The translations under genes and the position numbers were made by a program. From a virus, in the IMG/VR virus record IMGVR_UViG_3300037264_005839: a stretch of 64,000 nucleotides of DNA; one strand, written 5' to 3'. This document shows, in pieces, positions 8,886 through 53,550 of this stretch. Position 1 is the stretch's first letter, and each line of letters starts with the position of its first letter. The notes beneath the pieces are model-generated. The model saw nothing but the letters and a program-made list of their open reading frames with translations. It did not search any database and was not told where the DNA came from.

Positions 8886-8886
8886 C

Positions 8887-10871: not shown

Positions 10872-11159
10872 ATGGCCCAACCACAGACCGAAACAGAACG
10901 GAAAGCCAAGCTCGACGACACGATGCGCCGATTCGAGGAGCGCATGGCCGCAAACGAGGAGAAGTCCCGGCCGAAGCGTAGCCGCCAAGAGGTGCTCAAT
11001 GCGGCGATCGACGCCGTGCAGGAGCAGCTCGTCAAGGAACGCGAAGCCCTCCAGAAGAGGTTCCACATGGCCGCGCAGGAACATGCCCAACGCGAGACGG
11101 TCGAGAGTCTCGAGTGGCTCGTCGTCGATCTCAAGCGCATCCGCGACGAAGAGGTATGA
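10872..11159 (+). CDS. hypothetical coiled-coil protein
   Basis: 95-aa ORF downstream of the TTTTCACGAACACTCTACCCCC element. Confidence 0.5.
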   Translation: MAQPQTETERKAKLDDTMRRFEERMAANEEKSRPKRSRQEVLNAAIDAVQEQLVKEREALQKRFHMAAQEHAQRETVESLEWLVVDLKRIRDEEV

Positions 11160-14952: not shown

Positions 14953-15288
14953 GTGTCCCAAAGTGATCGCCAGATCGAGATCCCCATCGAGCTTCTCGGG
15001 CACCAGCTTCGTGAGAAGATCGTCGAGATGCTCGTCCTCGTGGAGCACCTCTCGATCATGGCGACGCCACCAGGTCTCTCGATCTTCGGGAACCTCTGCA
15101 TGCTGGGAGCGCAGTGTTGTCAGCACGTGGCGCTGGGGCGGCGCGAGCAAGCTCTCTTCGCTGCAATCACCATTGGTCGTGCAGTGCCACATGCCTTCCC
15201 GGTCGGGCGTGAGCGGGAAGTTCTTGAGCAGGCTCTGGAGGAGATCATCGCGGTCCTCGAGTGCCCCACGAGCGACGACCTCCACTAG
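14953..15288 (+). CDS. hypothetical protein
   Basis: 111 aa; about 77% GC3; fits exactly between neighbours; the antisense ORF 14509..16572 is judged a shadow. Confidence 0.4.
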   Translation: MSQSDRQIEIPIELLGHQLREKIVEMLVLVEHLSIMATPPGLSIFGNLCMLGAQCCQHVALGRREQALFAAITIGRAVPHAFPVGREREVLEQALEEIIAVLECPTSDDLH

Positions 15289-15318
15289 ATTTTTCACGAT
15301 TGGCGTATAAGCCATGCG

Positions 15319-16614
15319 ATGAGTCGGCGACGCGTTGGGACCTTCCAGATGCTGTGGGACTGTTCCTGCGGCACCGGCCCCTTGCTGGGCATCGACCATC
15401 GGCACTGCCCTTCCTGTGGGCGCCCACAGGACCCCCTGCGTCGGTACTTCCCGGATCAGAGGGATGCGGTTCCGGCCCCCGAGTGGGTGGTCGGCAGCGG
15501 TGCTGACCTCTACTGCCCGTACTGCTCCACGGCCAACGTGGCCCAAGCCACCTTCTGTGTGGGTTGTGGGGGACCCATGGACGGCTCCAAGGAGGTCGAG
15601 CGTCGGGAGGCCAACCACGGGACCTCGGCCGAGACGATCCAAGACGCCCTCTCTGAGGCTCGCCAGGAGGCCCAGGAACGGCGCGAGGCCGTGGCAGAGG
15701 CCCAGGCCCCAGACGCGCAGCGGGCCCGGGAGAGGGCTCGTGCAGCCGATCAGGCAACCCCTCGTGAGAGCACGCAGGTGAGGGTGGAATCCCCGCGTAA
15801 ACCCCGCGCTCCGCATCCAAAAATGGCGGCCTTGAGGCGCCACTGGGATCACCTCCGACGACCGGCGATGGTCGGGATGGGGGTGCTCGGTTTGCTGGTG
15901 CTCCTGTGGGCCATCTTCGCGTGGGAGAAGACGATCACCGCCGAGGTTGAGCACCGCTCGTGGGAGCGCTCGCAGGAGATCGAGCGTTTCGTACAACTCT
16001 CTGACTCGTCGTGGTGCGACGACCGACCTGGAGATGCCTACGATGTTGATGAGAGTCGTCGACAACGAGGCACGAGGACAGTCATTGACTGTCGAGACTG
16101 CGACTGCCACACAGAGCAAGTCAAGGTTGGCGAGAACTGTTACGAGGCGAACTGCAGGACCGTCCGCACGGACAATGGCAACGGATCGTTCGACGTGACT
16201 GAAGTGTGCGACCGCAGGTGCGATCCCGTTCACGAAGACCGGCAGATCTGCAAGGACCGGACACACGAAGAGTCCGTCTACGACGAATGGTGCTCGTACA
16301 GGATGGACCGATGGCGACCCCACCGCACGGCCTCGGAAGAGGGCAACTTCTCGCGTGCCCCGGCGTGGCCGGAGCTCGATCTGCGGACGTGCGGCAGGAT
16401 CGAGTTCGGGTGCGAACGACCGGGAGCCAGGAAAGAGAACTACGTCGTCAGTTTCCGCGACGTGCAGGATGACGAGCACTACGAGTGCTCCTACCCGCAG
16501 TCGGCGTGGACTCGATACGAAGAAGGAAGTTTGTGGAAGGCAACGGTGAAGCGTCTCGGTGGCCGCTTCCAATGTGCCTCGCTCGTTGCCATGGCTTCGG
16601 AGACGGAGATCTGA
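15319..16614 (+). CDS. membrane protein with N-terminal zinc ribbons and Cys-rich extracytoplasmic domain
   Basis: CPSCG, CPYCS, CVGCG, then TM segment VGMGVLGLLVLLWAIFAW, then many Cys; TATAAG 7 nt upstream of ATG (leaderless-type). Confidence 0.6.
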   Translation: MSRRRVGTFQMLWDCSCGTGPLLGIDHRHCPSCGRPQDPLRRYFPDQRDAVPAPEWVVGSGADLYCPYCSTANVAQATFCVGCGGPMDGSKEVERREANHGTSAETIQDALSEARQEAQERREAVAEAQAPDAQRARERARAADQATPRESTQVRVESPRKPRAPHPKMAALRRHWDHLRRPAMVGMGVLGLLVLLWAIFAWEKTITAEVEHRSWERSQEIERFVQLSDSSWCDDRPGDAYDVDESRRQRGTRTVIDCRDCDCHTEQVKVGENCYEANCRTVRTDNGNGSFDVTEVCDRRCDPVHEDRQICKDRTHEESVYDEWCSYRMDRWRPHRTASEEGNFSRAPAWPELDLRTCGRIEFGCERPGARKENYVVSFRDVQDDEHYECSYPQSAWTRYEEGSLWKATVKRLGGRFQCASLVAMASETEI

Positions 16615-16633
16615 TCATGGGAGAGAACGGAAG

Positions 16634-17500
16634 ATGACCGACAAGACCTCACTTGGGGACAGGATGAAACACTACGAGGAGGTGTCCTGCACCATCCTCA
16701 CGCCTCGCATGCCGATGATCATCCGCATCGACGGACGTGCCTTCCACACGTACACGAAGAAACTGCATCACGGGATGCGGGAAGAGTCTCCGTGGAATCC
16801 CGTGATGCGCGATGCGATGACGGCTGCCGCCCGCGGTCTCATGCGTGAGATCAGCGGGGCCAAGATTGCATACCTCCAGTCTGACGAGATCAGCGTCCTC
16901 GTCACCGACTACGACAAACTGTCTTCGCAGGCTTGGTTCGACAAGGCCGCGCAGAAGGTGTGCTCGGTGGGGGCGTCCATCGCTACGATGGAGTTCAACA
17001 ACAACATCCGCGACTACATCGACTCCGGGCTCCCCGCCGAGATGTTCCCGACGACTGCGACGTTCGACGCGCGCGTCTTCGTGGTGCCGAGGGAGGATGT
17101 CTGCAACTATTTCATCTGGCGGCAGCGGGATGCAGAGAAGAACTCGATCTCGATGCTGGCGCAGACGCATTTCTCCCCCAAGCAGCTCCATGGCAAGGAC
17201 GGCAACGCAAAGCAGGACATGTTGATGCTCGAGAAGGGCGTCAACTGGAACGACCTGCCGACGTGGCAGAAACGCGGGTGGTGCGTGGACCGCAAGACGA
17301 TCACCATGACCGTGGCCGAACTCGAGATGGCGGGCGGCAAAGTGACACGGAATCCCGGCGTTGTGCTCGACCCGAACACCGAGGTCACACGCACCGTGGT
17401 TGAACCTGACTGGGAGATCCCGATCTTCACGAAGGACCGCGGCTACATCGATCAGTTCGTGAACGTGGACGAGGCGCCCTTGAAGGGGGAGGAGCCCTGA
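16634..17500 (+). CDS. Thg1-like protein (tRNA-His guanylyltransferase family 3'-5' polymerase)
   Basis: RMKHYE, RIDGRAFH, QSDEISV, FDARVF, NYFIWRQRDAEKNSI, WQKRGWC blocks. Confidence 0.8.
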   Translation: MTDKTSLGDRMKHYEEVSCTILTPRMPMIIRIDGRAFHTYTKKLHHGMREESPWNPVMRDAMTAAARGLMREISGAKIAYLQSDEISVLVTDYDKLSSQAWFDKAAQKVCSVGASIATMEFNNNIRDYIDSGLPAEMFPTTATFDARVFVVPREDVCNYFIWRQRDAEKNSISMLAQTHFSPKQLHGKDGNAKQDMLMLEKGVNWNDLPTWQKRGWCVDRKTITMTVAELEMAGGKVTRNPGVVLDPNTEVTRTVVEPDWEIPIFTKDRGYIDQFVNVDEAPLKGEEP

Positions 17501-18252
17501 TGCGCTTGGTCATCACCAGCGACACGCATGGTTTCCATCGCGGATGGGGCGTCTACGACAAGGCGATGCCTGAGGGGGACGTCCTCGTCCATGCGGGAGA
17601 CTTCTCTCGAGACCATGGCTCGTGGCAGGACGTGGTGCGCTTCGCCGCGTGGATGGAGAAGCAGCCACACCGGCACAAAATCCTGTGCCCCGGCAACCAC
17701 GATGTGGGGATCCACGAGAACCGGAACAAAGCGGCGCTGCTGTTCACGGCGCACGGAATTCATCTCCTCGGCATCCAGACCGACCGCGTCGAGATCGACG
17801 GGATCACCTTCGCAGGAGCTCCTTGGATGCCAATCAGTGGATGGGTTCCCCCTTGGGGGTTCGAGACGCCCGATTACGAGCGAGAGAGGCTGTGGGCTCG
17901 GGTAGAACCCTCGGATGTCCTCGTGACCCACTCGCCTCCCATGGGAATCCTCGATCAGACGGCCAAAGGCGAGCACATCGGGTGCCCACTGCTCCAGCGC
18001 CACGTCCTCGGGCGCCTCCGTCCACGTCTCCACATCTTTGGACACGTCCACGAAGCGCGAGGCATCCACGAGGAAGAGGGCATCGTCTTCATGAACGCCT
18101 GCTCTAACACACGGGGCACTTTTGTCCGCGACGACATCAAGGGGATCACGCACATGACCATGGGCATCCACGACCCGATGGTCTACAACCTTGAGCGTGA
18201 TCCTACCGGCCCTGCAGAAGTTGCCTATGGAGATCATAAGGTTGAGAGGTGA
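17500..18252 (+). CDS. calcineurin-like metallophosphoesterase
   Basis: TGATG overlap; ITSDTHG, HAGDFS, CPGNHD, THSPP, GHVHE motifs. Confidence 0.8.
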   Translation: MRLVITSDTHGFHRGWGVYDKAMPEGDVLVHAGDFSRDHGSWQDVVRFAAWMEKQPHRHKILCPGNHDVGIHENRNKAALLFTAHGIHLLGIQTDRVEIDGITFAGAPWMPISGWVPPWGFETPDYERERLWARVEPSDVLVTHSPPMGILDQTAKGEHIGCPLLQRHVLGRLRPRLHIFGHVHEARGIHEEEGIVFMNACSNTRGTFVRDDIKGITHMTMGIHDPMVYNLERDPTGPAEVAYGDHKVER

Positions 18253-18265
18253 GCGAGCAGGGGAC

Positions 18266-18766
18266 GTGAACACGCCGTACGGACAGTTGGAGGCACTCCT
18301 CCAGAATCTTCGGGAATGCGGCCTGACGGTCGCGTTCGCTGAATCCTGCACGGGAGGGCGCCTCTGCGCAGATCTGACGACCGTGCCGGGATCTTCTGAT
18401 GTCGTGGTTGGATCTGCTGTGTGCTACCAACTGGCAGCGAAACGGAAGGTGTTGGGTCTTGAGGATGTGGACGAGCAGAATGTGGTGTCGGGTCAGACGG
18501 CGCTGGCGATGGCGACAGCTACACGTCGCCTCTTCGGGGCGGACTTCGGTGTCGCGACGACGGGCTATCTGAGTCCGCATGAATCCAACGGACAAGCGTG
18601 GGAACCCGCCGCCTACTGGGCGATAGCAGGACCCCAGGTGGAACGGTGGGACGGCGTGGAGCTCTCGTCACACATGCCTCGAGACTTGAACCGCGAACTT
18701 GTCGTACGCGCCACGATGCAGGCATTGGTAACGGCTGTTTCTCGAGAGAAGAGGAGCCCGGCATGA
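18266..18766 (+). CDS. CinA C-terminal domain / NMN amidohydrolase PncC-like
   Basis: TVAFAESCTGGRLCADLTTVPGSSDVVVGSAVCYQLAAKRKVLGL; GTG start after AGGGGAC. Confidence 0.75.
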   Translation: MNTPYGQLEALLQNLRECGLTVAFAESCTGGRLCADLTTVPGSSDVVVGSAVCYQLAAKRKVLGLEDVDEQNVVSGQTALAMATATRRLFGADFGVATTGYLSPHESNGQAWEPAAYWAIAGPQVERWDGVELSSHMPRDLNRELVVRATMQALVTAVSREKRSPA

Positions 18767-28017: not shown

Positions 28018-29856
28018 ATGGCACTCACACTCCTCTTCATCGTTGGGTTGCTGCTTTTGGCAGCCCCCATTCTCCTGCCAATCTTTGGCATCAACATCCC
28101 CCTCTCCGCCACCTTCGCCATGCTCGGTGTGGGCGGCTCTCTGGTCGGCCTCATCGGCCTCCTGTGGATCTTCAAGAAGCTGTACGTCAAGACGCGCGCC
28201 GACTTGGCGTTCGTGCGCACGGGACGAGGGTTCAAGATCATCAAGGATGGGGGCAGCATCGTGATCCCGTTCCTGCACGAGATCATCTGGGTCTCGCTGC
28301 GTACTTTCGAGGTGAAGGTGGAGCGCCGAGACAAGGATGCTCTCCTGACGAAGGACAAACTGCGGGCAAACATCGCCGCCGAGTTCTACGTGAAGGTCAA
28401 GCCGGACGACGACGCCATCGGAGCGGCGAGCCGTTCTTTCGGTGAGGAGATGAACGCACATGGCATCCTCCGCATCGTCGAGAAAAAGTTGATCAGCAAC
28501 CTGCGCACCGTTGCCGCGCAGAAGACTCTTGAGGAGCTGAACTCGGACCGCGCAGCTTTCATGGAGCAGGTGACCCACCTCTGCGCGCAGGATCTGATCC
28601 ACAACGGCCTCACACTGGAGTCGGCGGCCATCTCGTCGCTGGACCAGACGAGCAGTGAACACCTGGACCCGAAGAATGTCTTCGACGCCCAAGGCCTCAG
28701 GACCATCGCCGACATCACGGAGGCGAACATGACCCACACAAACAAGCTCCAACGCAACGGCGAGGAGGCGCGCAAGCGCCAAGACGTCGAAACGCGCAAG
28801 GCCATGCTCTCGCTCGAGCAGGAGCGGGAAAAGGCCGAGGCCGAGCAGATAGCCGAGATCAAGCGCATCAAGGCTGAACAGGGGCGACTGGCCCGCGAGA
28901 AGGAGATCGAGGCTACGAAGGCGGTCGAGCTCGCAGAGGTTGAGAAGCACGAGCGTATCGAGGTTGCCAAGAAGGCACAGGAGCAGGCTGTCGAGGTCGC
29001 CGCGCAGGCGAAGGAGCAAGCCGTCGAGGTTGCCACCAGGGCCAAGGAAGCCGCCATCTCCACGGCCGAGAAGGAGCGCGCCGAGAAACAGGCCGAGCAG
29101 GCCGACGCCGAGCGACTGCGTCAGGAGAAGACGGAGGCAATCAAGACCGTCACCATGGTGCAGGAGGCCGAGCGCAAGAAGCAGCAGGCGATCATCGAAG
29201 CGCAGGCTGAGGCCGAGCGCAAGCTGATCTCCGCGCAGAAAGGTGCCGACGCCGAGGCGTACAAGGTGGAGAAAGACGCCGCGGCCCGGAAGGCGGCTGC
29301 TGATGCCGACGCTGAGGCCACGCGCAAGAAGGCCGAGGCGGACAAAGACGCCGAAATCGCCCGCGCAGAGGGCGAGAAGGCGAGGGCCATGGTGCCTATT
29401 GAGGTCAAGAAGGCCGAGCTCGCCATCGAAAAAAGCCGGATCGAGGAGGTCGTCAAGCCGGAACTCGAGGCTCGCGATGCTCACGGCCAGTCGGCGCAGG
29501 AGTTTGAGCTGGCGAAGCTGTATATCGAGGAGCACGCCAAGGTGGAGATCGAGCGCGCGAAGGCCAGCGTCGAGATCTACCGCAAGGTCGAGGTGCAGGC
29601 TTTCACCACGCTCGAGCAGATGGCTGCCGTGCAGCAGCAAGTCGTCCGGGGTCACGGGCTCGCCGGCATGATCAATGGATTTCGCGAGAATCTCGACGTT
29701 GACTCGGCATCTGAGGCAGTCGGAGCCATCAAGAGCATCATCGAAGCTATTCGCGGGTCGCAGCCCAAGTCGGGATCGAACGGAGCACCTGAACCCAAAA
29801 CGGTCGCTCCGAGCGTTTCTCCAGCACCCGCCGCGAAGCCGACGCCCGCAGGCTGA
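28018..29856 (+). CDS. flotillin-like SPFH/band-7 protein
   Basis: N-terminal TM, SPFH core, long E/A/K-rich coiled coil (YqiK/FloT architecture). Confidence 0.8.
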   Translation: MALTLLFIVGLLLLAAPILLPIFGINIPLSATFAMLGVGGSLVGLIGLLWIFKKLYVKTRADLAFVRTGRGFKIIKDGGSIVIPFLHEIIWVSLRTFEVKVERRDKDALLTKDKLRANIAAEFYVKVKPDDDAIGAASRSFGEEMNAHGILRIVEKKLISNLRTVAAQKTLEELNSDRAAFMEQVTHLCAQDLIHNGLTLESAAISSLDQTSSEHLDPKNVFDAQGLRTIADITEANMTHTNKLQRNGEEARKRQDVETRKAMLSLEQEREKAEAEQIAEIKRIKAEQGRLAREKEIEATKAVELAEVEKHERIEVAKKAQEQAVEVAAQAKEQAVEVATRAKEAAISTAEKERAEKQAEQADAERLRQEKTEAIKTVTMVQEAERKKQQAIIEAQAEAERKLISAQKGADAEAYKVEKDAAARKAAADADAEATRKKAEADKDAEIARAEGEKARAMVPIEVKKAELAIEKSRIEEVVKPELEARDAHGQSAQEFELAKLYIEEHAKVEIERAKASVEIYRKVEVQAFTTLEQMAAVQQQVVRGHGLAGMINGFRENLDVDSASEAVGAIKSIIEAIRGSQPKSGSNGAPEPKTVAPSVSPAPAAKPTPAG

Positions 29857-43319: not shown

Positions 43320-43711
43320 GGCGGCTCCTCATCGATGACGCCCTCCGGGAGGCATGCAGCAGGTTGCGGGCGCACGCCCACGATCCGGCGCACTGGTACA
43401 GGCTTGGAAAGTCCACGGTCGTGCCAGGGGATATGCCCGAGCATGTGCTCTCGTTGCCCGAAGGGTTTCGCGTGGTGTTCAGTGTCACCGAGGCCCCTGA
43501 GTATAGGCCGCGTCCCTTCCGGCACCTGAGCGTGTCGGTCGACGGCCCGAATTACCCTCATCCGATCGCCGTATGGACACTCGCGGATCTCCTTGGTTTC
43601 ACGGGCGCCGAGATGACGGATGCCGTTGTCGTCGGCCCCGGACCATGGGCCATGGACATCGACAAGACAGAGCACTGCATCGTTGTCCAACAACCGCTGG
43701 AAGATGCCTGA
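43316..43711 (+). CDS. hypothetical protein
   Basis: GTGA overlap; 131 aa. Confidence 0.5.
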   Translation: MRRLLIDDALREACSRLRAHAHDPAHWYRLGKSTVVPGDMPEHVLSLPEGFRVVFSVTEAPEYRPRPFRHLSVSVDGPNYPHPIAVWTLADLLGFTGAEMTDAVVVGPGPWAMDIDKTEHCIVVQQPLEDA

Positions 43712-43721
43712 CAGGAGAAAC

Positions 43722-43922
43722 ATGACCGACCGCATCCATGCCCTCACCGTGATCCTGGACCAAGACTACCGTGACGACGACGTCCAATCCATCATCCAAG
43801 CCATCCAGATGACCAAAGGTGTCCTCGACGTCAAGATGCACGTGACGGATATCTCGGATCTCACGGCCCGAGAACGCGTCAAGCACGAGATGCAGATGAA
43901 GATCTTGGGTCTGTTCAAATGA
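43722..43922 (+). CDS. hypothetical small protein
   Basis: AGGAGAAAC RBS; 66 aa. Confidence 0.45.
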   Translation: MTDRIHALTVILDQDYRDDDVQSIIQAIQMTKGVLDVKMHVTDISDLTARERVKHEMQMKILGLFK

Positions 43923-44668
43923 GCGACGACAAGCAGAACTTGGGCCCATTACTGGCCGGTCTAGGCGCCCGACGGATAGGCGTCGAACACTGGACCGAGC
44001 ACGACTTCGAGATGGAGCGCATCGGTCGTGAACAGAACCAGCGCACGTACGCGCGACGCCTTGAGCAGCTCGAGGCTGCAGGCTGGGTTCCTTTCCAGGG
44101 ACCTTTCTACTACGCGCGTCGAGAGTTCCACGGCGGCCATCTCATCCCGGACACGAAGAAGCGCGTACCCACCAAGGTTGCGTTCGCCATGTTTCGGGAT
44201 CAGAACCCGGATGTCGCACTCGAGCCCTACAGGCCGCACCCGCATGGATGGACGTCACCTCCGAGTACGCGCGGGTTGATCCACCAAGAAATCGTCAGTG
44301 TCGAGCCGATGAAGGTCCCGACGTTCGGGCTCTTCGCGATGAAGAACGAGGATTTCGGCTACGGCACGGAGAATCTCGAGCGTGCAGACCGATGGAGGGT
44401 CTTCTGCGCTGGGTTCACTGGCGTGCGTAGCACGGGGACCGGATCGTCAAGGGACGAGGAGACCGGGAAAGGGCGCGACGCCGTGTTCGTCACACTTGAC
44501 CATGATGCCGACGCGGCGAAGTTCCCTGCCGAGTGGGAGGGACGCCTCGTCGTCGTGCGCGTCAAAGCCGAAGCCGACGAGCTCGCCGAGAAGAAAGCCC
44601 GGCGCGAGATTGAGGAGGCCAGCTACCGGGAAGAGTCCGAGTGGCTCAGAAAGGCAAGGATCTCGTGA
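43919..44668 (+). CDS. hypothetical protein
   Basis: ATGA overlap; 249 aa. Confidence 0.55.
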   Translation: MSDDKQNLGPLLAGLGARRIGVEHWTEHDFEMERIGREQNQRTYARRLEQLEAAGWVPFQGPFYYARREFHGGHLIPDTKKRVPTKVAFAMFRDQNPDVALEPYRPHPHGWTSPPSTRGLIHQEIVSVEPMKVPTFGLFAMKNEDFGYGTENLERADRWRVFCAGFTGVRSTGTGSSRDEETGKGRDAVFVTLDHDADAAKFPAEWEGRLVVVRVKAEADELAEKKARREIEEASYREESEWLRKARIS

Positions 44669-45150
44669 GCGACCACTACAGTTTCCCCATCTACGAGGTT
44701 GTCCCCGCGCTTCGCGACGCAAGGGTGTCCCCTGCGGAACCCTTCAGCCGGAGCCTCTCTCAGGTCGGAGCCAAGGCTCTTGGGGAGGCAGCAGAACTGT
44801 TGAGCAATCACCTCATCCACAACCGCAAAGAAACAGGCATCACGGACGAGGAACTAGACGCGCTTCGGTCGATCCGGCGCAAGCTCGAAGCATGCGAGAA
44901 GGCCGATCTCTTGTTGCGCCGCAAGCAAGACCTGATCCTGCGGTGCATGCATCCCGACGGCTGCTACCACGGTTATCTCTCGAAGGAGATCAAGCTCCGC
45001 GCGTACGAACTTGCCGGAGCCGATCCTCTCGACGGCCTGCATGGGCTGCATCTCGGGTGGGAGAACCAGCAGCTAAACGCCGTCTTTGAATTTCTGGCTG
45101 GGCATGTCGAGAGGTTGCAGCGCGAGGACTTCGCGCGCTGCAGGATCTAG
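44665..45150 (+). CDS. hypothetical protein
   Basis: GTGA overlap; last gene of the long plus-strand block. Confidence 0.5.
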   Translation: MSDHYSFPIYEVVPALRDARVSPAEPFSRSLSQVGAKALGEAAELLSNHLIHNRKETGITDEELDALRSIRRKLEACEKADLLLRRKQDLILRCMHPDGCYHGYLSKEIKLRAYELAGADPLDGLHGLHLGWENQQLNAVFEFLAGHVERLQREDFARCRI

Positions 45151-45371
45151 TTCAGACACTGTTTAGGTGCAGCGACAACTTGGAAGCGGACGGTCATAGG
45201 GAAGACCACCTGCATCCAGCCTTCGGCCTCACGTCGCTCGTCTACGGTGCAGTTCTGGATCTCGATGCGGACATCGCCGATGCCGAGGTCCAAGACGTAC
45301 ACGCGCTCACGGCCGATGCCAAGTTTCTCGGAGAGGACGCTCTTAACTTCTTCGATCTTCGTAGGGGACAT
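45147..45371 (-). CDS. hypothetical small protein
   Basis: 74-aa ORF, convergent with 44665..45150. Confidence 0.4.
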   Translation of the reverse strand: MSPTKIEEVKSVLSEKLGIGRERVYVLDLGIGDVRIEIQNCTVDERREAEGWMQVVFPMTVRFQVVAAPKQCLN

Positions 45372-45396
45372 CTTCTATTCTACGCTGCGGGAGAAG

Positions 45397-45618
45397 TCAT
45401 GGTCGTTGGGGAATGCGGTAGTGCTTGGAGAAACGCTCGCTCGCCTCGTGCAGCGTCTCGCCCTCAAACTCGAATTCCTCGCGCGTGATGATTCTCCAAC
45501 CTCGCTCGACGCTATGCGTCTGACGGTCGAGGCCCAGGAACATCGGGTGATCGAAGACCCGCGCAAGCCAGTCCGGCACCCGGTCCTCTGCCTGCTGAAC
45601 CTGCTTGAGCCAGCTCAT
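45397..45618 (-). CDS. hypothetical small protein
   Basis: 73-aa ORF. Confidence 0.45.
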   Translation of the reverse strand: MSWLKQVQQAEDRVPDWLARVFDHPMFLGLDRQTHSVERGWRIITREEFEFEGETLHEASERFSKHYRIPQRP

Positions 45619-45622
45619 ACTT

Positions 45623-45919
45623 CTACGCTTTCAGCCATTGTTCCAAGAAGTCCGCCACCTGCCGCAGTTCGACTGGTGTGGCGTCGCTTTTAAGTGTGTT
45701 GGCACGATGCGAAAGCACGAGGACGTTCCCACGAACATACCCCAGCCGAGGGTCGATGCGGTCCAAAGATGGAGAATAGGGCGACGCTTTCCCCTCTCCG
45801 GTCCGCAGCGGAATCCCGAGCACAGGGCACTGTTCGGGAACCAAGATGTCGTCGAGAGTCAGGTCGAACGGTAGCCCGTACCGTAGAGCCCGTTGCCTTG
45901 CATTCTGCAGAAGCACCAC
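45623..45919 (-). CDS. HNH-family endonuclease
   Basis: CPVLGIPL...LDRIDPRLGYVRGNVLVLSHRANTLKSD. Confidence 0.6.
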   Translation of the reverse strand: MVLLQNARQRALRYGLPFDLTLDDILVPEQCPVLGIPLRTGEGKASPYSPSLDRIDPRLGYVRGNVLVLSHRANTLKSDATPVELRQVADFLEQWLKA

Positions 45920-45974
45920 TTCCGGTCGAGTCCGGTGGTGCCGTCGATCGGCCGGGGTTTCACCAAGTCAGACA

Positions 45975-46427
45975 TCAGCCTGTCCTGCTCTCTTCCTCGA
46001 AACGTGCTTGTGCCTCAGCATATCGCTTCTCCTGTGCCGCCCACCACCGCTCACGCTGCCGCCGCGCTTTGGCCAACTTCCAGTAGGGCTGGTCTCGCGG
46101 GCTGTCCCTTCCGATCATGGCCGAACCCTTGATAAACTCGGCTCGCTCCTGTGAAAGTACGAGGGAGAACTCAGTGGGCTTCGGGGCGCCTTCGGGACGC
46201 TCCTCGCCCTCAACGACGATCCCCACCTTCTTGGCGACCTGCTGGATCACCTCCCTGAGCGTGTACTCGAGGTGATTGATGTAATCGTAGAGCTCGCGGC
46301 ACTCGTCAGCGGTCAGCGTCGCGTCGCAGTGTGCCTGTGATGCAACGCCGAGGATCCCGTTGACACTTCCGGGACGGATGTCGCCTGGGTGATACATGTG
46401 AAGGGGAGGGCAGTGTGTTCGAGACAT
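45975..46427 (-). CDS. hypothetical protein
   Basis: ATG preceded by TTTTCACGAA...GAGTATAACGAGAGGTC. Confidence 0.5.
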   Translation of the reverse strand: MSRTHCPPLHMYHPGDIRPGSVNGILGVASQAHCDATLTADECRELYDYINHLEYTLREVIQQVAKKVGIVVEGEERPEGAPKPTEFSLVLSQERAEFIKGSAMIGRDSPRDQPYWKLAKARRQRERWWAAQEKRYAEAQARFEEESRTG

Positions 46428-46514
46428 GACCTCTCGTTATACTCGATCCGCGTTCGTGAAAAGTGTGGATCGACCGCGTGCACGGCAAGAATGTCCCTGT
46501 GCCGAAACGGCGTC

Positions 46515-47300
46515 CTATGACCCTTCGGGGCGGTGATCCTCCCCGGAATTGTTGATTTGGGGTGTGCAGCCCTCCACGAGTTGATCCCATCGATGTTCGA
46601 TCAGGTCGCTGTAGAGACGCGCATCCAGGCCGTAGGACCCCAGGGAGATCATGTCGTTGACCTCGACAAGGAGCGTACGCCCGTCCCGAACCCGACCAAA
46701 GTCCAGCGCACAGGCCCGTGGCATGTCGTCGTAGCCGGCGAACGCATGCAGGGCTTGGTGCACGACATCCGCATCCGGGAAGAGAAAGGGATCACCACGG
46801 TAGTGCCCGATGCCAACAGCTTGCCCGTCACGGCAGTAGACGCGCCACTCACTGAGGAACTCGACATACTCGACGCAATACACAAGCGTCGTCGCATCCA
46901 AATGGCTCGTCACGATCAGGTCGCCGAAGCGCGAGACCACTTGGCCAAGGAACAACTTGTGGTGCACCGGCTTGATGAACACGGGAGGACCAGGCTCGTT
47001 GTACCGACGACGGATCACGCTGAGCACATCGACATCGACTCTCCGTCCCATGAAGGGGCGGAGCCGGGACGGGTAATCGAGATGCGTCGGCGTGCAACCG
47101 AGGCGCGCCAAGTAATCTCGCACGATGTTCACGTCGCCGAAGACGAGACAGTCTGGAGTTGCCGGGAGTTCCTCGATCTGCGTCGGATTCAGGGTGCACA
47201 CGTCACGCCCCCGTGCTCGGAACCCGAGGAAGGCCGCGCACAGGGCCGCATTCGGAAATTGCCCGTCCTCGTCGATCTGAATGACTACGCGGTCGATCAC
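46515..47300 (-). CDS. ATP-grasp fold enzyme
   Basis: VFIKP..., EWRVYCRDG, TLLVEVN typical of ATP-grasp ligases. Confidence 0.6.
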   Translation of the reverse strand: MIDRVVIQIDEDGQFPNAALCAAFLGFRARGRDVCTLNPTQIEELPATPDCLVFGDVNIVRDYLARLGCTPTHLDYPSRLRPFMGRRVDVDVLSVIRRRYNEPGPPVFIKPVHHKLFLGQVVSRFGDLIVTSHLDATTLVYCVEYVEFLSEWRVYCRDGQAVGIGHYRGDPFLFPDADVVHQALHAFAGYDDMPRACALDFGRVRDGRTLLVEVNDMISLGSYGLDARLYSDLIEHRWDQLVEGCTPQINNSGEDHRPEGS

Positions 47301-47647
47301 TTGAGTGCATCCACGATGCCCTGCATCACGGCCTTGGCATCCTCAGGGGTTATGTTGTCGCGACCATTCGTCTTGGCACGCCACAGGGCACGCACAAGAC
47401 CCTCCTCCATGGCCTCCCTGATGCGCGGGAGTTCCTCGCAGCCGGTCATCTGGATGAGGAAGTGGACGACGGGCATCGCCTGCCTGGTTCGCATCACCGC
47501 CGCCCCTCGACCTCTGTCGTTGAGCGTCTCCATGTGCAGGTTGCCCCAGATGCAGAACTGTGCCGTGAAGGCGCCGGGACCGAGACGCTGGATATCCTCG
47601 ATCGTCTTCTTGACGTACTCGAGATCCTCGGGATCGACATCCATCAT
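47297..47647 (-). CDS. hypothetical protein
   Basis: overlapping stop/start with neighbours. Confidence 0.5.
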   Translation of the reverse strand: MMDVDPEDLEYVKKTIEDIQRLGPGAFTAQFCIWGNLHMETLNDRGRGAAVMRTRQAMPVVHFLIQMTGCEELPRIREAMEEGLVRALWRAKTNGRDNITPEDAKAVMQGIVDALK

Positions 47648-48267
47648 CGGGAACGTCGCAGCAGTTGGTCAAGGGTGAGTTGCTCGCCCCGCTCAGAGCC
47701 CCACCGTGGGAGGGTCTCCTTCGTCCACGGACACTCATCGTCCTTGATGCTCTCCCATTCCTCGGCGGTCGGCTCGCGCCATTCTCCCGTCGCCTCGAAG
47801 TCCCAGTCGTCGCCGTAGTCGATTGTGGAGACGCGGTAGGACCCCATGGAACCTATCCATACCCAGACTCCAGGGCCCGGGGCCGCGAGGTCGAGGTCGG
47901 AGCACGAGCGCCCGATCTCGTCGAGGTGCCAGTCGATGGCAGGCCCGCACGCATGCAGGAGCACGTCATTGCCCTTCCCGTCCGACGCCACGACAGCACA
48001 TGACTGGTAGATTTTCCCCTCGCCGTCGCGCCACGGGTTCGTGAACTCGTGGATCCACTCGGCCGCCAAGCGTCCCTCAGGAGTCAGCGAGTCGCCGAGG
48101 ATTAGGTCACGCTGTGTCAGGCTGACCCGTACCTCGTTGGGGATGGCGGGATCATCCTCGCGCCACCTGAGGGTGGAGAGAACGTCCCACTCCGCCTCGC
48201 TCAGTTCATGTAGACGGTCGAAACACTTGGGCTTCGGTGGTTCTTCAACGTACTTGATGGTGGTCAT
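47644..48267 (-). CDS. hypothetical protein
   Basis: 207 aa; upstream palindrome carrying GGGGTATAA. Confidence 0.5.
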   Translation of the reverse strand: MTTIKYVEEPPKPKCFDRLHELSEAEWDVLSTLRWREDDPAIPNEVRVSLTQRDLILGDSLTPEGRLAAEWIHEFTNPWRDGEGKIYQSCAVVASDGKGNDVLLHACGPAIDWHLDEIGRSCSDLDLAAPGPGVWVWIGSMGSYRVSTIDYGDDWDFEATGEWREPTAEEWESIKDDECPWTKETLPRWGSERGEQLTLDQLLRRSR

Positions 48268-48303
48268 GGGATCGAAAACCTCGGGCGAAGAAGTCTCTTG
48301 TTT

Positions 48304-48331
48304 TATACCCCGCGTACATGGCCGGGGTATA
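48304..48331. other. perfect 9-bp stem/10-nt loop palindrome TATACCCCG-N10-CGGGGTATA
   Basis: between sirtuin 3' end and start of 47644..48267; no U-tract, so probably regulatory rather than an intrinsic terminator. Confidence 0.6.
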
Positions 48332-48348
48332 AGGGGAAATGTCGCCCG

Positions 48349-49206
48349 CTAGCGCGTCAGGAAATCCACGAGCTCAGGTAACACGACGCCGGCTCGGCCG
48401 CGCAGCCACACCCCTTGCTGCCGTGCAAGGTTAGCGAGGGGGCTGTCCTCAGGGTTGACATCGATGACAATCGCGTCTCGGACCACCGCGTAGTTCGTCA
48501 AGATCTGCGCGATTGGGACGACGGCACTGCACCCCACGGTGAGGACGAGATCGGCCTCCTGTGCGAAGTTGTGGGCCTCCTCGCTCCGGTAGAGCTCCTG
48601 CGAGTACATCTCATCGAACAGGAGCACGTGCGGCCGCATGATGTATCCGCAGTCGGGACAGGTCAGGTCCTCGGGAAACCGGGCGTTCTCTGGAATGTCC
48701 GCGAATTTCGGAACGCCCTGGTTGTTACGTAACCAGCACTCGTCGCTGCATCGCATGCGCTTGTCCCCGTGGAGTTCGATGCACTTCTCGGGTGTGTTGC
48801 CGGCTTCAAGGTGCAGCCCATCGATGTTCTGCGTGACGAGCAGGAACTGACCCTCCGTGGAGTGCATGTAATTCTCGAGGTAGGCGATGGCTAGGTGCGC
48901 CGGGTTGGGCTCCTTACCGCGCATCGTTCCAGCGAATCGGTCAAGGTAGTACTCCCAGAGTTTGTCGATCTGGTGCTCAACCGTGGTACTGCGCAGGAAC
49001 TCAACCGGATTCCAATCGTCGGAATCGTAGATCCCGGTACCGTCGACAGAGCGGAATGTTGGGATACCACTCTCGGCCGAGATGCCAGCTCCGGTGATGA
49101 CGAGCACCTTCCCTTCGTGGACAGCACGACGGGCCCGGCTCCACACGCGGGACGGGATCGAAGCAAGGGCCTCCACTTCTTGTTCGTGCAAGGAAGTTGT
49201 CGTCAT
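48349..49206 (-). CDS. Sir2-family NAD-dependent deacylase (sirtuin) with zinc ribbon
   Basis: GAGISAESGIPTFR, CPDCG...C, catalytic-His region; start ATG 49206 overlaps upstream stop. Confidence 0.8.
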   Translation of the reverse strand: MTTTSLHEQEVEALASIPSRVWSRARRAVHEGKVLVITGAGISAESGIPTFRSVDGTGIYDSDDWNPVEFLRSTTVEHQIDKLWEYYLDRFAGTMRGKEPNPAHLAIAYLENYMHSTEGQFLLVTQNIDGLHLEAGNTPEKCIELHGDKRMRCSDECWLRNNQGVPKFADIPENARFPEDLTCPDCGYIMRPHVLLFDEMYSQELYRSEEAHNFAQEADLVLTVGCSAVVPIAQILTNYAVVRDAIVIDVNPEDSPLANLARQQGVWLRGRAGVVLPELVDFLTR

Positions 49207-49436
49207 GAAATCTCTGGTTCCTTCCACCCGGACTGGCTGCGGATCTCGATAATTTGTTCCCACGAGAGCTTCTCAGGGTTGAGCGCCTCGTCGGGATCTA
49301 TCCACCCCTGACGCCGGGCATACCCCGTCGAGAAGACGGCTCGCGCCATCCCGATGCGCTGGACCTCGGCCGCCTCGTCCTCAGATCCGAGGTGAACGAA
49401 GACGCCCTTGCCGAAGGGGTTTTTGATGGTTGCCAT
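49203..49436 (-). CDS. hypothetical small protein
   Basis: ATG preceded by GGGGGTATAACGCTGGAGGC. Confidence 0.45.
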   Translation of the reverse strand: MATIKNPFGKGVFVHLGSEDEAAEVQRIGMARAVFSTGYARRQGWIDPDEALNPEKLSWEQIIEIRSQSGWKEPEIS

Positions 49437-49488: not shown

Positions 49489-49839
49489 ATGCAGCAGATG
49501 CCCAAGATCGTGCGCCCGATCAAGATCGTGCAGGTGCCGTCGAGCTGCGCCAGCCCGCTCTTGTTGCTGCATAAGCGGTGGGTTGGACCCATCGTCTTCT
49601 TGGCGCAGGGGGACGTCCCAATAGTGGTCGATGCCCCATCCCGAGCGGTGATCCCCCTCCTGCCGAATCGTGGGACGGTGGGGCGAGAGGCGGCCGCGAG
49701 TTTGCTCAGGGAGGCTGCCCCATATCCTGCGGAGATCTACCTCGTCGCCGTCGAGACGGCTGCTGGCATCCACGGCTTCGGGATGCTCGCGGTTCCGGTG
49801 GCGATGACTCCGACGTTCACGACGGCCCCGACGCCCTAG
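49489..49839 (+). CDS. hypothetical protein
   Basis: about 85% GC3 versus low GC3 for antisense ORF 49447..49773; single plus-strand gene inside the minus-strand island. Confidence 0.5.
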   Translation: MQQMPKIVRPIKIVQVPSSCASPLLLLHKRWVGPIVFLAQGDVPIVVDAPSRAVIPLLPNRGTVGREAAASLLREAAPYPAEIYLVAVETAAGIHGFGMLAVPVAMTPTFTTAPTP

Positions 49840-50231
49840 GCGAACTTCGGCATGAGAGGGTCCTCGTTGCGCTGCTCGCCGTTCACGATGATCTCACGGT
49901 AGCGCTTGAGGAGGGAGACCTCGATCTCCACCACGCGCTTGGTCTCTTGGCTCACGAACTTCGCCAAGAGAGCCTCTTCCTGTTGCTTGATGCGTCGGTC
50001 AAGCCACGCCGCCAAACCTTGGCGCTCCGTCTTCCGCATGTCCTTCTGCTCCTGGAGCTCGCTCCGCAGTTTGTCGTTGGATCGGTCGCTCCAGCGCAAC
50101 CTGTTCCGTTCCTTCGCAAGGGCCTCCCTTGTTTGGTTGAGTTCGTCCTCGAGCGTCTTGATCTGACCCTCAAGGGACTCCACGATGTCGAGAGCTTTTT
50201 GGCTCAGGTCTGCGTTGTCCAAGATGTCCAT
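49836..50231 (-). CDS. coiled-coil protein
   Basis: 131 aa, heptad-rich; ATG preceded by GAGTAGAATGGAGGC. Confidence 0.55.
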   Translation of the reverse strand: MDILDNADLSQKALDIVESLEGQIKTLEDELNQTREALAKERNRLRWSDRSNDKLRSELQEQKDMRKTERQGLAAWLDRRIKQQEEALLAKFVSQETKRVVEIEVSLLKRYREIIVNGEQRNEDPLMPKFA

Positions 50232-50265: not shown

Positions 50266-50796
50266 ATGAGCAACGTGAGAGAGCATGCAGCCAGGGCCTT
50301 CGCAGTCCAGGCTCACGGGGATCAACGGTACGGATCGAAGCCCTATGTCGCGCATCTGGATGACGTGGCTGCCCTCGTGGAGGAGATCGCCGAAATTCAC
50401 GAACGAGAGATCCTCCTCGCCGTCGCATATCTTCACGACGTGCTCGAGGACACCGATGCCACACAAGAACAGATCGACGAGCTGTTCGGTCCAGTTGTGG
50501 CCCAGGCCGTCGCGGAGATCACCGATCCCCCGGGTGAGACACGAAGCGAGCGCAAGAAGATCTTGCACTGGCGCCTTGAGGAGCTGAACGCGAAGACTCC
50601 GGCTGGACACGCGGCGCTGATCGTGAAGGCGGCCGACCGTCTCGCCAACGTGCGTGCCTGCATCGTCGAGGGGAAGGAGGATCTGATCAAGATGTACGTG
50701 AGCGAGCACCTCGAGTTCCGCAAGGGCGCGCACAGGCGAGGCATGTGCGACGCATGGTGGGCCGAACTGGATGCCCTCCACCACGCAAGGCGTTAG
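50266..50796 (+). CDS. HD-domain phosphohydrolase (RelA/SpoT-hydrolase-like)
   Basis: HGDQRYGSKPYVAHL..., LHDVLEDT; ATG preceded by GGTACGGTGGGAAG. Confidence 0.7.
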   Translation: MSNVREHAARAFAVQAHGDQRYGSKPYVAHLDDVAALVEEIAEIHEREILLAVAYLHDVLEDTDATQEQIDELFGPVVAQAVAEITDPPGETRSERKKILHWRLEELNAKTPAGHAALIVKAADRLANVRACIVEGKEDLIKMYVSEHLEFRKGAHRRGMCDAWWAELDALHHARR

Positions 50797-51565: not shown

Positions 51566-52213
51566 ATGAAGGAAGCCACCATGTCGAAGCACCACGTCCT
51601 ACGCCGCATCCTCGCGTGCGCCCTCACGGCCGCGATCCCCACCACGCTCGTCCTCCAGTCGGCAGGATGCCTGTGCGGCGTGGACAAGCACGACAAACTC
51701 ACGGCGACGTACCTGACCTGTGACGAAGAGTGGGCGAACATCGAGGCGCAGTACCAGCGCCGCATGGACCTCATCCCGAACCTCGTGAAGGTCGTGAAGG
51801 CATCCGCAGCTCACGAGAAGGACACGCTCGAGGCCGTGATGAAGGCGCGCGCCGAGGCGTCGAAAGTCACTCTCGACGCGAAGTCCCTCTCCGATCCCGA
51901 AGCGATGGCGAAGTTCCAGGCGGCGCAAGGCGAGGTGTCACAGGCACTCGGCAAACTGATGATGGTCTCGGAGGCATACCCGGACCTCAAAGCCAACGAG
52001 CAGTTCGCCACGCTGATGGAGCAGATCGAGGGCACGGAAAACCGCATCCTCGTCGCCCGCAAGAAGTACAACGCCGCCGTCAAGGACTACAACTTCGAGG
52101 TGATGAACTCGGGCGGCAAGGTCTTCAACGCGATCACCGGCGAGATGTTCACGGCCCGCGTCATGTTCACGGCCCAAGCGGGTGCCAACCAGGCGCCGGA
52201 AGTGGACCTGTAG
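51566..52213 (+). CDS. LemA-family protein
   Basis: N-terminal TM; EEWANIEAQYQRRMDLIPNLV...; start could be the second ATG at 51581 (AAGGAAG RBS). Confidence 0.75.
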   Translation: MKEATMSKHHVLRRILACALTAAIPTTLVLQSAGCLCGVDKHDKLTATYLTCDEEWANIEAQYQRRMDLIPNLVKVVKASAAHEKDTLEAVMKARAEASKVTLDAKSLSDPEAMAKFQAAQGEVSQALGKLMMVSEAYPDLKANEQFATLMEQIEGTENRILVARKKYNAAVKDYNFEVMNSGGKVFNAITGEMFTARVMFTAQAGANQAPEVDL

Positions 52214-52214
52214 G

Positions 52215-53006
52215 ATGCAGGCACTCTCGCGCGGGCTCCTCGCGGCAATCGTCGCGCTCGTAGTTTTTCTGCTGAGTTCCGTCGCGTCGGCGGAGTTCAA
52301 GGTGCCACCTCGGCCCGATGGTCCCGTCCACGACGGTGCCGACGTGCTGACGGGCGCACAGGAACGCGCACTTGAGATCAAGCTGGAGAAGTTCCGCGAC
52401 GCCCAAGGCCCTTCCGTCGTCGTGGCATTCATCCCGTCACTCGACGGCGAGCCCATCAACGAGGCCGCGTACGAGATCTTCTCGGCATGGGGCATCGGCA
52501 AGAAGAAACAGAATGATGGTGTGCTCCTCCTGATATCGGTCGCGGAGGCGAAAAAGGCAGGGCCCGGCGCCACGAAGTGCGGCTGTGCGAGGATCGAGGT
52601 CGGCGAGTACATCGAGGGCACCCTCACGGACGCCCGATCTCTCAAGATCCTCAAGGACGATGTGCTCGCGGCCGTCGTGAGCGGCAAGTTCGATGAGGGC
52701 GCCACCAAGGCCACGGACAGCATCATCGGTGTCCTCTCAGGCGACCCAGAGGCCCTTTCGGCGACCGACCCGGGGGATGGGGGCTCCGGCCTCCCCGACC
52801 TGCCCTGGTGGCTCTGGGTGGCCCTCGTGCTGCTCGGCCTCTACGTCCTCTACATCGCCGCCAAGCACGGCCTTCTGGAGGCATTCCTCAGCGGTGGAGG
52901 GGGATCGAGCGGGGGATCCTGGGGTGGGGGATCCAGCGGAGGGGGATCGAGTGGTGGCTCGTCCTTCGGAGGGGGATCGAGCGGAGGCGGGGGCGCCAGC
53001 GTCTGA
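52215..53006 (+). CDS. TPM-domain (TLP18.3/Psb32-like) protein with Gly/Ser-rich tail
   Basis: signal peptide, TPM core DGADVLTG...VVVAFIPSLDG...GVLLLISV, TM, GGGSSGG repeats. Confidence 0.75.
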   Translation: MQALSRGLLAAIVALVVFLLSSVASAEFKVPPRPDGPVHDGADVLTGAQERALEIKLEKFRDAQGPSVVVAFIPSLDGEPINEAAYEIFSAWGIGKKKQNDGVLLLISVAEAKKAGPGATKCGCARIEVGEYIEGTLTDARSLKILKDDVLAAVVSGKFDEGATKATDSIIGVLSGDPEALSATDPGDGGSGLPDLPWWLWVALVLLGLYVLYIAAKHGLLEAFLSGGGGSSGGSWGGGSSGGGSSGGSSFGGGSSGGGGASV

Positions 53007-53028: not shown

Positions 53029-53550
53029 CTAGCTCGCGGCCTCCTGGCGTGTTCCCTTCTGCGAACGAGGCCCGAGCGTCATGGACATGTTGCGTCCGTC
53101 CATGCGCGATGCCTGGACGACACTGCACACGTCGGAGAGTTCTCGGCACACGCGGTCAAGGATCGCCTGTCCTGTCTCCGGGTGCACCATCTGGCGCCCT
53201 CTGAACTGCACGAGCAGCTTGACCCGGTGGCCTTCCTCGAGGAAGTCCCGGGTGTGCTTCGCCTTGAAGGTGAAGTCGTGATCGCCGATCTGAGGTCTGA
53301 ACTTCACCTCCTTGAGCTCCTGAGCAGTACGGTTCTTCTTGGAGTCGCGGGCCAGCTTGGCCTGCTCGTACTTGTACTTGCCGTAGTCGATGATTTTACA
53401 AACCGGAGGTTCCGCGTTCGGCGATACCTCGACGAGGTTGAGACCGAGAGCTTGGGCGCGCCGCTGAGCATCGCGGGTGTCCAAGATCCCGAGTTGTTCG
53501 CCCTCCGGTCCGATCACGCGTACTTGCGGTACGCGGATGCGATGGTCCAT
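53029..53550 (-). CDS. infC: translation initiation factor IF-3
   Basis: 173 aa; N- and C-domain blocks (VRVIGPEGEQLGI, EVSPNAEPPVCKIIDYGKYKYE, KEVKFRPQIGDHDF...); TATAAT about 65 nt upstream. Confidence 0.85.
   Translation of the reverse strand: MDHRIRVPQVRVIGPEGEQLGILDTRDAQRRAQALGLNLVEVSPNAEPPVCKIIDYGKYKYEQAKLARDSKKNRTAQELKEVKFRPQIGDHDFTFKAKHTRDFLEEGHRVKLLVQFRGRQMVHPETGQAILDRVCRELSDVCSVVQASRMDGRNMSMTLGPRSQKGTRQEAAS

Follow-up and report, generated by a model that had tools for sequence, protein, structure and literature searches.

The locus considered here raises two questions: where a run of minus-strand genes carrying a sirtuin and an ATP-grasp ligase comes from, and whether these enzymes act together. 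The run lies at 45147-49436 of the IMG/VR virus record IMGVR_UViG_3300037264_005839, analysed as a whole stretch of 64,000 nucleotides (the window), and g1 to g9 denote the minus-strand open reading frames (ORFs) of this interval. A first-pass annotation, made from the letters alone, had described it as a moron-like acquired cassette. The explanation that we rank first, with slightly more confidence than doubt, is that of a native, syntenic and hypervariable accessory arm of large uncultured phages, with no recent import of a cassette, whose enzymes would be separate protein modifiers sharing a neighbourhood; a coupled writer/eraser system is a live but doubtful alternative. The run and its flanks are composed as follows.

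45147-45371, minus strand: g1, 74 residues, GC content at third codon positions (GC3) 0.73, no family match
45397-45618, minus strand: g2, 73 residues, kept at the distal end of the slot in relatives
45623-45919, minus strand: g3, 98 residues, small free-standing endonuclease labelled HNH (PHROG 3322)
45975-46427, minus strand: g4, 150 residues, variable member of the slot, homologue in contig L092
46515-47300, minus strand: g5, 261 residues, predicted R2K.2-family ATP-grasp amidoligase (formerly DUF4343; Pfam R2K_2)
47297-47647, minus strand: g6, 116 residues, five-helix protein whose very small family is lineage-specific, directly upstream of the R2K gene
47644-48267, minus strand: g7, 207 residues, N-terminal winged helix-turn-helix and conserved C-terminal domain
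48303-48332, no strand: interrupted inverted repeat with 10-bp arms and a 10-nt spacer, between g8 and g7
48349-49206, minus strand: g8, 285 residues, predicted class III (CobB/Sir2Af1/SIRT5-like) sirtuin (Pfam SIR2)
49203-49436, minus strand: g9, 77 residues, travels with the block, homologues in contigs L007 and L174
49437-49488, no strand: 52-bp divergent intergenic region with the start motif GGGGGTATAAC reading towards g9
49489-49839, plus strand: g10p, conserved, 116 residues, proximal border of the slot, conserved in six relatives
49836-50231, minus strand: g11, conserved flanking gene, 131 residues, conserved in five relatives

The nine-gene run and its slot in related contigs

The nine consecutive minus-strand genes seen at first pass are real: besides being ORFs, they have GC3 values of 0.66-0.80, typical of coding frames in a window of 61% GC, they were called identically by an independent gene caller on the identical Logan contig L001, and all nine have homologues elsewhere. 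The lone plus-strand gene and the minus-strand gene after it are likewise both real and conserved. The 45 kb upstream, taken to be a pure plus-strand block, is not one, as the gene calls on L001 put minus-strand genes at about 36.7-39.2 kb. Within the run, 4-bp start/stop overlaps at three junctions (g9/g8, g7/g6 and g6/g5) delimit two translationally coupled units, g9-sirtuin and g7-g6-R2K; the start of g8 is the ATG at 49206, which is backed by homologues.

The relatives are contigs encoding homologues of R2K, g6 and g7; they were compared by tblastn, and six are syntenic. On one side the slot is bordered in all six by g11 and the opposite-strand g10p. The latter was found at 34-84% identity, in the same position and always on the opposite strand, in L004, L005, L007, L091, L092 and L174, and g11 at 36-61% identity in L004, L007, L091, L092 and L174. 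The other border, where the contigs extend that far, is a convergent plus-strand block that includes homologues of window 43620-44668. Since the same slot and the same borders occur in six relatives, the strand switch and the block are taken as ancestral to the clade. The order of genes in the slot is the following (SIR2, sirtuin; HNH, g3).

Window: g9, SIR2, g7, g6, R2K, g4, HNH, g2, g1
L174: g7, g6, R2K, g9, PNK, ..., g1
L007: SIR2, g9, g7, g6, 34-residue R2K remnant, PNK, g1-like
L005: SIR2, g7, g6, R2K, MBL, 147-residue gene, PNK, ..., g2, GlnS-like
L004: SIR2, g6, R2K, 502-residue gene, ..., MBL, ..., PNK, ..., g2
L091: g7, R2K, SIR2, GlnS-like, 499-residue gene, 115-residue gene, MBL, NADAR, PNK, ..., g2
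L092: g7, g4, ..., MBL, ..., R2K, 500-residue gene

Same-slot homologues thus exist in relatives for eight of the nine genes, and the slot is hypervariable gene by gene. The window, L174 and L005 have the complete triad g7-g6-R2K; L007 has it too, save for a deletion of R2K. Single losses concern R2K (L007), the sirtuin (L174 and L092), g6 (L091) and g7 (L004). In L007, the closest relative, a remnant of 34 residues from the R2K C-terminus (3770-3868) directly follows g6; the ligase was therefore deleted recently, with the sirtuin, g9, g7 and g6 kept. The MBL/PNK segment, carried by every relative, has no copy anywhere in the 64-kb window, and neither has the NADAR gene. Identities are mosaic: the window sirtuin is 78% identical to that of L091, where the flanks reach 42-49%, and merely 63% identical to that of L007, where the flanks reach 61-84%, and its R2K is 72% identical to that of L089, where the context differs. 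Further protein-modification genes were seen in the relatives, where a SET-domain gene lies by the sirtuin, the sirtuin of L004 starts with an additional cysteine-rich N-terminal segment, and genes for Ser/Thr protein kinases stand where the convergent block borders the slot (L004 8189-8524, minus strand, and 8603-9637; L005 19953-20741; L092 15261-16703).

The small genes g1, g2, g4 and g9 gave no family match in Pfam, PHROG, NCBIfam and PADLOC scans. In L007 (52% identity) and L174 (45%), homologues of g1 occupy the distal end of this slot. Those of g2 (36-44% identity in L004, L005/L006 and L091) lie several genes downstream of R2K, past MBL and PNK. The sole homologue of g4 directly follows g7 in L092 (55% identity), and g9 stands between the sirtuin and g7 in L007 (66%) and after R2K in L174 (64%).

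The ninth gene, g3, is absent from all syntenic relatives and is the sole window-specific gene of the run. It matches PHROG 3322 'endonuclease' (1.8e-32), and is 50-57% identical to genes labelled as HNH endonucleases by their depositors in Mycobacterium, Streptomyces, Synechococcus, Pseudomonas and Caulobacter phages. Of its description as an HNH endonuclease the second word stands, on the PHROG match, and the first is a label: no Pfam HNH model was matched even at E <= 10 and no PDB sequence match was obtained, the motif SLDRID...GN...SHRAN is HNH-like by eye alone, and 'HNH' is the name used by PHROGs and by GenBank depositors. Like the free-standing phage HNH homing endonucleases of PHROG 3322, g3 is small, stand-alone, scattered and missing from relatives; unlike them it has no Pfam HNH match, and the first histidine of the motif is not evident from the sequence. 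Given its absence from the relatives, its identity of 50-57% to genes of unrelated phages and its GC3 of 0.657, the lowest of the nine, g3 is probably a mobile homing-type gene, and the one clearly recent arrival in the run.

The composition of the run is that of its surroundings, with a GC content of 0.607 compared to 0.614 +/- 0.008 for windows of the same size, and a tetranucleotide distance at the 22nd percentile of such windows. Start-associated motifs, which had been thought to be the island's own, are present but are not specific to it. The motif GTA[TG]AA followed by a G-rich stretch occurs 2-16 nt before ATG on both strands along the whole window; it precedes g1, g2, g4, g7, g9 and g11, plus many genes from 1.7 kb to 37 kb (sites are for example 1724, 13784, 15305, 22770, 25363 and 30230, and on the minus strand 37172, 45383, 46442, 49452 and 50244). 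10-mers resembling TTATACCCCG are enriched (6 observed vs 0.85 expected). This motif could serve the phage as a promoter or as an extended signal for initiation. The 'perfect palindrome' reported at 48304-48331 is actually an interrupted inverted repeat at 48303-48332, with 10-nt arms (48303-48312 and 48323-48332) around a non-palindromic spacer of 10 nt, and each arm is a copy of the genome-wide start motif, CGGGGTATAA, the two copies being inverted. The RNA of the 81-nt spacer between the sirtuin and g7, for which the relatives show no equivalent spacer, has a folding energy of -28.3 kcal/mol (z = -3.06). Intrinsic termination by the 48303-48332 hairpin was ruled out, as no U-tract lies downstream. 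Scans for sigma-70 promoters and for terminators stayed at chance level.

The sirtuin, the predicted R2K ligase and its candidate partners

The sirtuin g8 matches Pfam SIR2 at 3.3e-29 (102.5 bits, cut-off 24), and its closest solved relatives are Sir2Af1 (1.5e-30), SIRT5 (6e-26) and CobB. The motifs GAGISAESGIPTFR (the NAD-binding GAGxS...GIPxFR loop), TQNIDGLH and ELHG (with the catalytic His) are invariant in four clade members, and so is the zinc module C153, C157, C183 and C186. The call 'Zn-ribbon sirtuin' holds in its noun; the zinc ribbon is merely the ordinary four-cysteine module of sirtuins. Y87-L-D-R90 aligns with Y-A-W-R of Sir2Af1, and Y87-x-x-R90 is also invariant in the four members. 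In class III sirtuins this Tyr-x-x-Arg pair binds acidic acyl-lysine (Y102/R105 in SIRT5; also CobB). No residue required for NAD+-dependent deacylation of lysine, this pair included, is missing from g8. The window sirtuin shares with CobB, Sir2Af1 and SIRT5 the fold, NAD loop, catalytic His, four Cys and Tyr-x-x-Arg; unlike them it is phage-encoded and falls below the CobB equivalog cut-offs (NCBIfam NF040867 / NF001753: 159.7 bits vs 320 and 176.6 vs 243), while an NCBIfam deacylase model is matched at 4e-52. As judged from its sequence, g8 is a member of the Sir2 family that does not qualify as a CobB orthologue. At 63-78% identity in the relatives it is the best-conserved gene of the region, which implies purifying selection. 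Its identity is at most 34.5% to cultured-phage sirtuins and 40-44% to the closest generic, probably cellular, metagenomic sirtuins. A putative CobB-type deacylase is thus strongly conserved in a phage, and its type differs from that of the cultured-phage sirtuins of the literature.

The eukaryotic translation factor CDC123 is a relative of the R2K.2 ATP-grasp enzymes, which are widespread in bacteria and large phages. The recognition of an ATP-grasp enzyme in g5 was confirmed by Pfam R2K_2 at 1.5e-37 (129.2 bits vs a cut-off of 26.2, profile positions 1-146 of 147) and by all hallmark residues; R2K_3 is also matched, at 9e-29. Among the 268 homologues found, 20 were aligned, and K110, K115, R153, D200 and E213-x-N215 are invariant in this alignment. 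K110 and K115 (FIKPVHHK) are the RAGNYA lysines, R153 is the amide-ligase arginine and E213-V-N215 is the ExN motif. The hallmarks of the R2K clade are two lysines in or after RAGNYA strand 2 and an Asp in the kinase-like strand 4; the terminal ExN motif marks R2K.2, and ExGD in its place R2K.3 (PMC4431377). By these residues g5 should be a catalytically competent R2K.2 ATP-grasp enzyme. The predicted role of R2K.2 is the addition of peptides or amino acids to proteins (PMC4431377, PMC7824862), and the family has been reported sporadically in jumbo phages (PMC7824862). The proposal of a peptide or protein ligase co-transcribed with uncharacterised genes therefore agrees with what has been published on the R2K clade (PMC4431377).

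Likeness to the PF18299 R2K.2 family extends over the profile score, both RAGNYA lysines, the Arg, Asp and ExN, the location in large phages and the predicted role; the difference lies in the context. Published contexts of R2K.2 involve GNAT genes, R2K.3 or an ADP-ribosylglycohydrolase, compared with a coupled triad and a usual sirtuin neighbour here, and the cellular and cultured-phage R2K.2 genes that we examined are solitary, unlike g5 in its triad with g6 and g7. What is new is this recurrent, translationally coupled association of known kinds of enzymes with two or three lineage-specific proteins. For the R2K.2 family, g6, g7 and g9 are the first recurrent coupled partners and the sirtuin a recurrent neighbour, which gives a short list of candidate substrates and cofactors.

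Both g6 and g7 belong to families that have not been described before. For g6 the structure prediction gives, with confidence, a bundle of five helices; the g6 family counts just 10 cluster representatives among 1.84 billion proteins, and the alignment of its homologues is too divergent for deriving search patterns. Candidate homologues of g6 that were considered and rejected are the 116-, 115-, 120- and 121-residue genes of L092, L091, L002 and L175, and the 125-residue gene of L008. The AlphaFold2 model of g7 (pLDDT 80) has two domains, of which the C-terminal one is beta-rich and strongly conserved and gave no structural match; a Cys-His enzyme was ruled out for this domain, which has no invariant histidine.

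Copies of g7 were also seen away from the triad. In L175 (23-1106) a copy of 79% identity sits between homologues of the window's Leu/Phe-tRNA protein transferase (L/F-transferase) gene and of window 10824-11153; the transferase of the window (9932-10639, plus strand) is full-length (Pfam PF03588, 2e-60). From this single case, a copy beside the L/F-transferase homologue, g7 appears to move within these genomes. Its neighbours thus include two enzymes, unrelated to each other, that attach amino acids to proteins: R2K and, in one case, the L/F-transferase. The C-terminal domain of g7 also occurs by itself (66% identity) in L008, another large contig, near a NADAR gene, an SNF2 helicase and Cas7/Csd1-like genes, and this contig has no sirtuin, g6 or R2K (8480-8935, 10001-10402, 15066-18728).

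Separate modifiers or one system

The g9-sirtuin and g7-g6-R2K units are each preceded by the genome-wide, promoter- or start-associated motif GTA[TG]AA. Under the explanation that we rank first, the sirtuin would use up NAD+ to deacylate lysines of host or phage proteins; the groups removed would be acetyl, succinyl or the like, possibly acidic ones, since the Tyr-x-x-Arg pair binds such groups in SIRT5 and CobB. By analogy, R2K would activate a carboxylate as acyl-phosphate and join it to an amine, the likeliest outcome being the addition of amino-acid residues onto a protein. As g6 and g7 are almost always directly upstream of R2K, they would be its lineage-specific partners, substrates or regulators. 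Both enzymes would act as separate host-takeover or counter-defence protein modifiers, each being lost singly in some relatives. Such a role is suggested by the slot neighbours in relatives, which include an Apyc1-like MBL, PNK and NADAR; the SpoT-like HD hydrolase found next to the slot, both in the window and in L007, also suggests it. Together with the GlnS-like gene, the neighbours in the relatives form a theme of counter-defence and RNA repair. The endonuclease g3, and perhaps g4 too, would have replaced the MBL phosphodiesterase and PNK genes that relatives carry at the same point. If the enzymes are independent, the region amounts to just another hotspot, accessory or anti-defence, in a huge phage.

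Several points weigh against this explanation. We know of no R2K.2 enzyme with a known activity or substrate, so that we infer the ligase chemistry. The gene-wise mosaic of identities, with a sirtuin closest to that of L091 amid distant flanks, shows that some horizontal exchange occurs within the clade. The adjacency of sirtuin and triad survives a change of gene order, which is usually taken as functional coupling and not as fully independent action. About seven related genomes of one clade are concerned, in which synteny and selection are inseparable. The sirtuin could instead be an ADP-ribosyltransferase. Finally, the window yielded no recognizable capsid, portal or terminase gene, and its phage identity is itself an inference.

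The alternative that survives best, tentative as it is, makes the block one unit: R2K, helped or targeted by g6, g7 and g9, would ligate an amino acid or an acidic acyl group to an amine or carboxylate of a protein, and the sirtuin would remove this mark or deacylate the acceptor lysine. The sirtuin adjoins triad genes in 5/5 genomes that have a sirtuin, and does so in two orders, g7-R2K-SIR2 in L091 and SIR2-g7-g6-R2K elsewhere (window, L005 and, lacking g7, L004). Start/stop overlaps run throughout the block in every genome, g9 stays within the block at three different positions, and Tyr-x-x-Arg would suit acidic acyl groups such as a glutamyl-type adduct. In Firmicutes, R2K.2 and R2K.3 genes flank an ADP-ribosylglycohydrolase (PMC4431377), a second link of R2K to NAD/ADP-ribose chemistry.

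The distribution of the genes argues the other way. L174 has g7-g6-R2K-g9 and no sirtuin, L007 has sirtuin-g9-g7-g6 with R2K deleted, and in L092 R2K lies seven genes away from g7. R2K is found alone, at 65-72% identity and in a different context, in L002, L089 and L090, and it is solitary in the jumbo phages that were checked: the R2K genes of the cultured AH06 and FLC9 and of the uncultured LR756504 have no sirtuin, g6 or g7 within the 3.5-6 kb of flank inspected, and the cultured phage RsoM2USA, although it encodes a sirtuin as well as a DUF4343/R2K gene, has them about 28 kb from each other. The pairing occurs in 0/160 control loci. Neither a sirtuin nor g6 nor g7 lies within 6 kb of R2K.2 at 80 cellular loci, where ORF clustering yielded no recurrent neighbour save for synteny among Pirellula relatives, and no R2K, g6 or g7 was found at 80 generic sirtuin loci, a negative control taken from a metagenome scan with the pattern AESGIPTF (probably cellular, <=44% identity). 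All positives come from one clade, for which shared ancestry suffices. IMG/VR scans with R2K, with g7 and with the sirtuin alignment returned no clade member, and DNA similarity against 50,697 sequenced phages gave no match.

Functional coupling of the sirtuin and R2K is possible. Its full form, in which the sirtuin, g9, g7, g6 and R2K.2 would be one system on the same target, with R2K as writer, the sirtuin as eraser or primer and g7 and g6 as adaptor or substrate, is in our judgement unlikely; if true, R2K.2 would gain its first function and its first set of partners, and R2K a second, independent link to NAD/ADP-ribose. A known parallel is the SirTM/Macro/GcvH-L/LplA2 operon, which joins a sirtuin with a ligase and a small carrier protein. 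Common to both is the idea of encoding a sirtuin side by side with an ATP-dependent ligase and a small partner protein. The SirTM operon has a lipoate-protein ligase, Macro, a class M sirtuin and GcvH; here the ligase is of the ATP-grasp type, Macro is lacking, the sirtuin is of class III, and g6 and g7 are unrelated to GcvH.

An improbable alternative is that the sirtuin serves RNA repair, removing 2'-phosphates from cleaved tRNA by a KptA/Tpt1-like transfer of ADP-ribose, together with PNK, MBL, NADAR and RtcB. Such a role has been proposed for most viral sirtuins (PMC9503650), and the sirtuin lies 1-9 genes from a kinase-plus-HAD-phosphatase PNK in L004, L005, L007 and L091, with the MBL enzyme also in L004, L005 and L091, and NADAR in L091; the window itself encodes RtcB, Thg1 and two metallophosphoesterases. 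Like the viral sirtuin neighbourhoods of PMC9503650, this is a phage sirtuin without a Macro partner, with PNK and end-processing enzymes nearby in relatives; unlike them, it has no 2H, cREC, Nudix, PIN or tRNA-ligase gene adjacent to it, and the window's block contains no nucleotide kinase or HAD phosphatase gene either. The window, furthermore, has lost PNK and MBL and is without NADAR, and yet keeps an intact sirtuin, while L174 has PNK and no sirtuin. The protein retains the acyl-lysine Tyr-x-x-Arg, and it resembles cellular and archaeal deacylases (Sir2Af1 1.5e-30; NCBIfam 4e-52) more closely than it does the sirtuins of cultured phages (<=34.5%).

The original proposal, a recently acquired moron-like island of all nine genes with its own expression signals and seeded beside a homing endonuclease, now appears very improbable. 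It could draw on the strand switch at both ends, the mobile endonuclease inside the run, the variable content of the slot among relatives and the mosaic identities (R2K 72% to L089 in another context, sirtuin 78% to L091). Against it stand the native GC and tetranucleotide composition, a start motif that is genome-wide, with no distinct promoter or terminator signals in the scans, the conservation of the strand switch and of both borders in the same slot of all six syntenic relatives, and the same-slot homologues of eight of the nine genes. It is largely refuted by these synteny and composition tests. The annotation had itself named an island conserved in all relatives, with core-gene-like phylogeny and no compositional deviation, as evidence that would tell against acquisition: we found no deviation and a conserved slot and, given the mosaic identities, only partial agreement with a core-gene-like phylogeny. 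The least probable idea, with hardly any chance in our view, is phage-borne defence or superinfection exclusion with the sirtuin as an NAD+-depleting effector as in Thoeris, DSR or SIR2-HerA: sirtuin domains are common among defence effectors and the neighbourhood is conflict-related, but ten proteins gave no meaningful PADLOC match (the sole marginal one being R2K, E = 0.005, and the sirtuin giving none), g8 is of the compact CobB type with zinc module and acyl-lysine motif and without a sensor domain, and no HerA, TIR, SLOG or pAgo partner lies nearby.

Phage context and further genes

The accessory arm, in our reading native, would belong to a lineage of large, probably huge, uncultured phages. 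Several observations lead us to regard the window as part of a very large phage: its PHROG matches include a virion structural protein, a Thg1-like enzyme and metallophosphoesterases; it also encodes RtcB, IF3, the L/F-transferase and an FHA protein; the relatives carry IF2, tRNA synthetases, UvrD, protein kinases and Cas genes; and R2K relatives among sequenced phages, cultured and uncultured, belong nearly all to jumbo phages. The closest cellular R2K.2 homologues (38-42% identity, L094-L173) are mostly from Planctomycetota (Isosphaeraceae, Tautonia, Pirellula, Schlesneria and Gimesia), and this phylum may contain the hosts of the clade.

No tRNA gene was found in the window. Its genes for RNA and translation functions comprise an RtcB ligase (7293-8699), a Thg1-like tRNA-His guanylyltransferase (16559-17500), two calcineurin-like metallophosphoesterases (5808-6809 and 17500-18252) and a full IF3 (53029-53550, minus strand). 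Flanking the slot, a small HD_4 hydrolase related to RelA/SpoT (50266-50796, plus strand; Pfam 1.1e-09, TIGR00691 2e-15) is 71% identical in L007 and could be an alarmone hydrolase. A pair of LemA and TPM-domain genes, unusual for a phage, lies beside the arm (51566-53006, plus strand) and is found at 54-57% identity in L005 (2331-3742). Further on, two giant ORFs on the minus strand encode 2074 residues (56953-63177), with no Pfam or PHROG match, and 1013 residues (53839-56880), with a laminin-G/concanavalin-like domain as sole match; both may be tail or surface proteins. At 28018-29856 (plus strand), a protein of 612 residues contains an SPFH/Band 7 domain (Pfam 2.2e-09), which is uncommon in phages.

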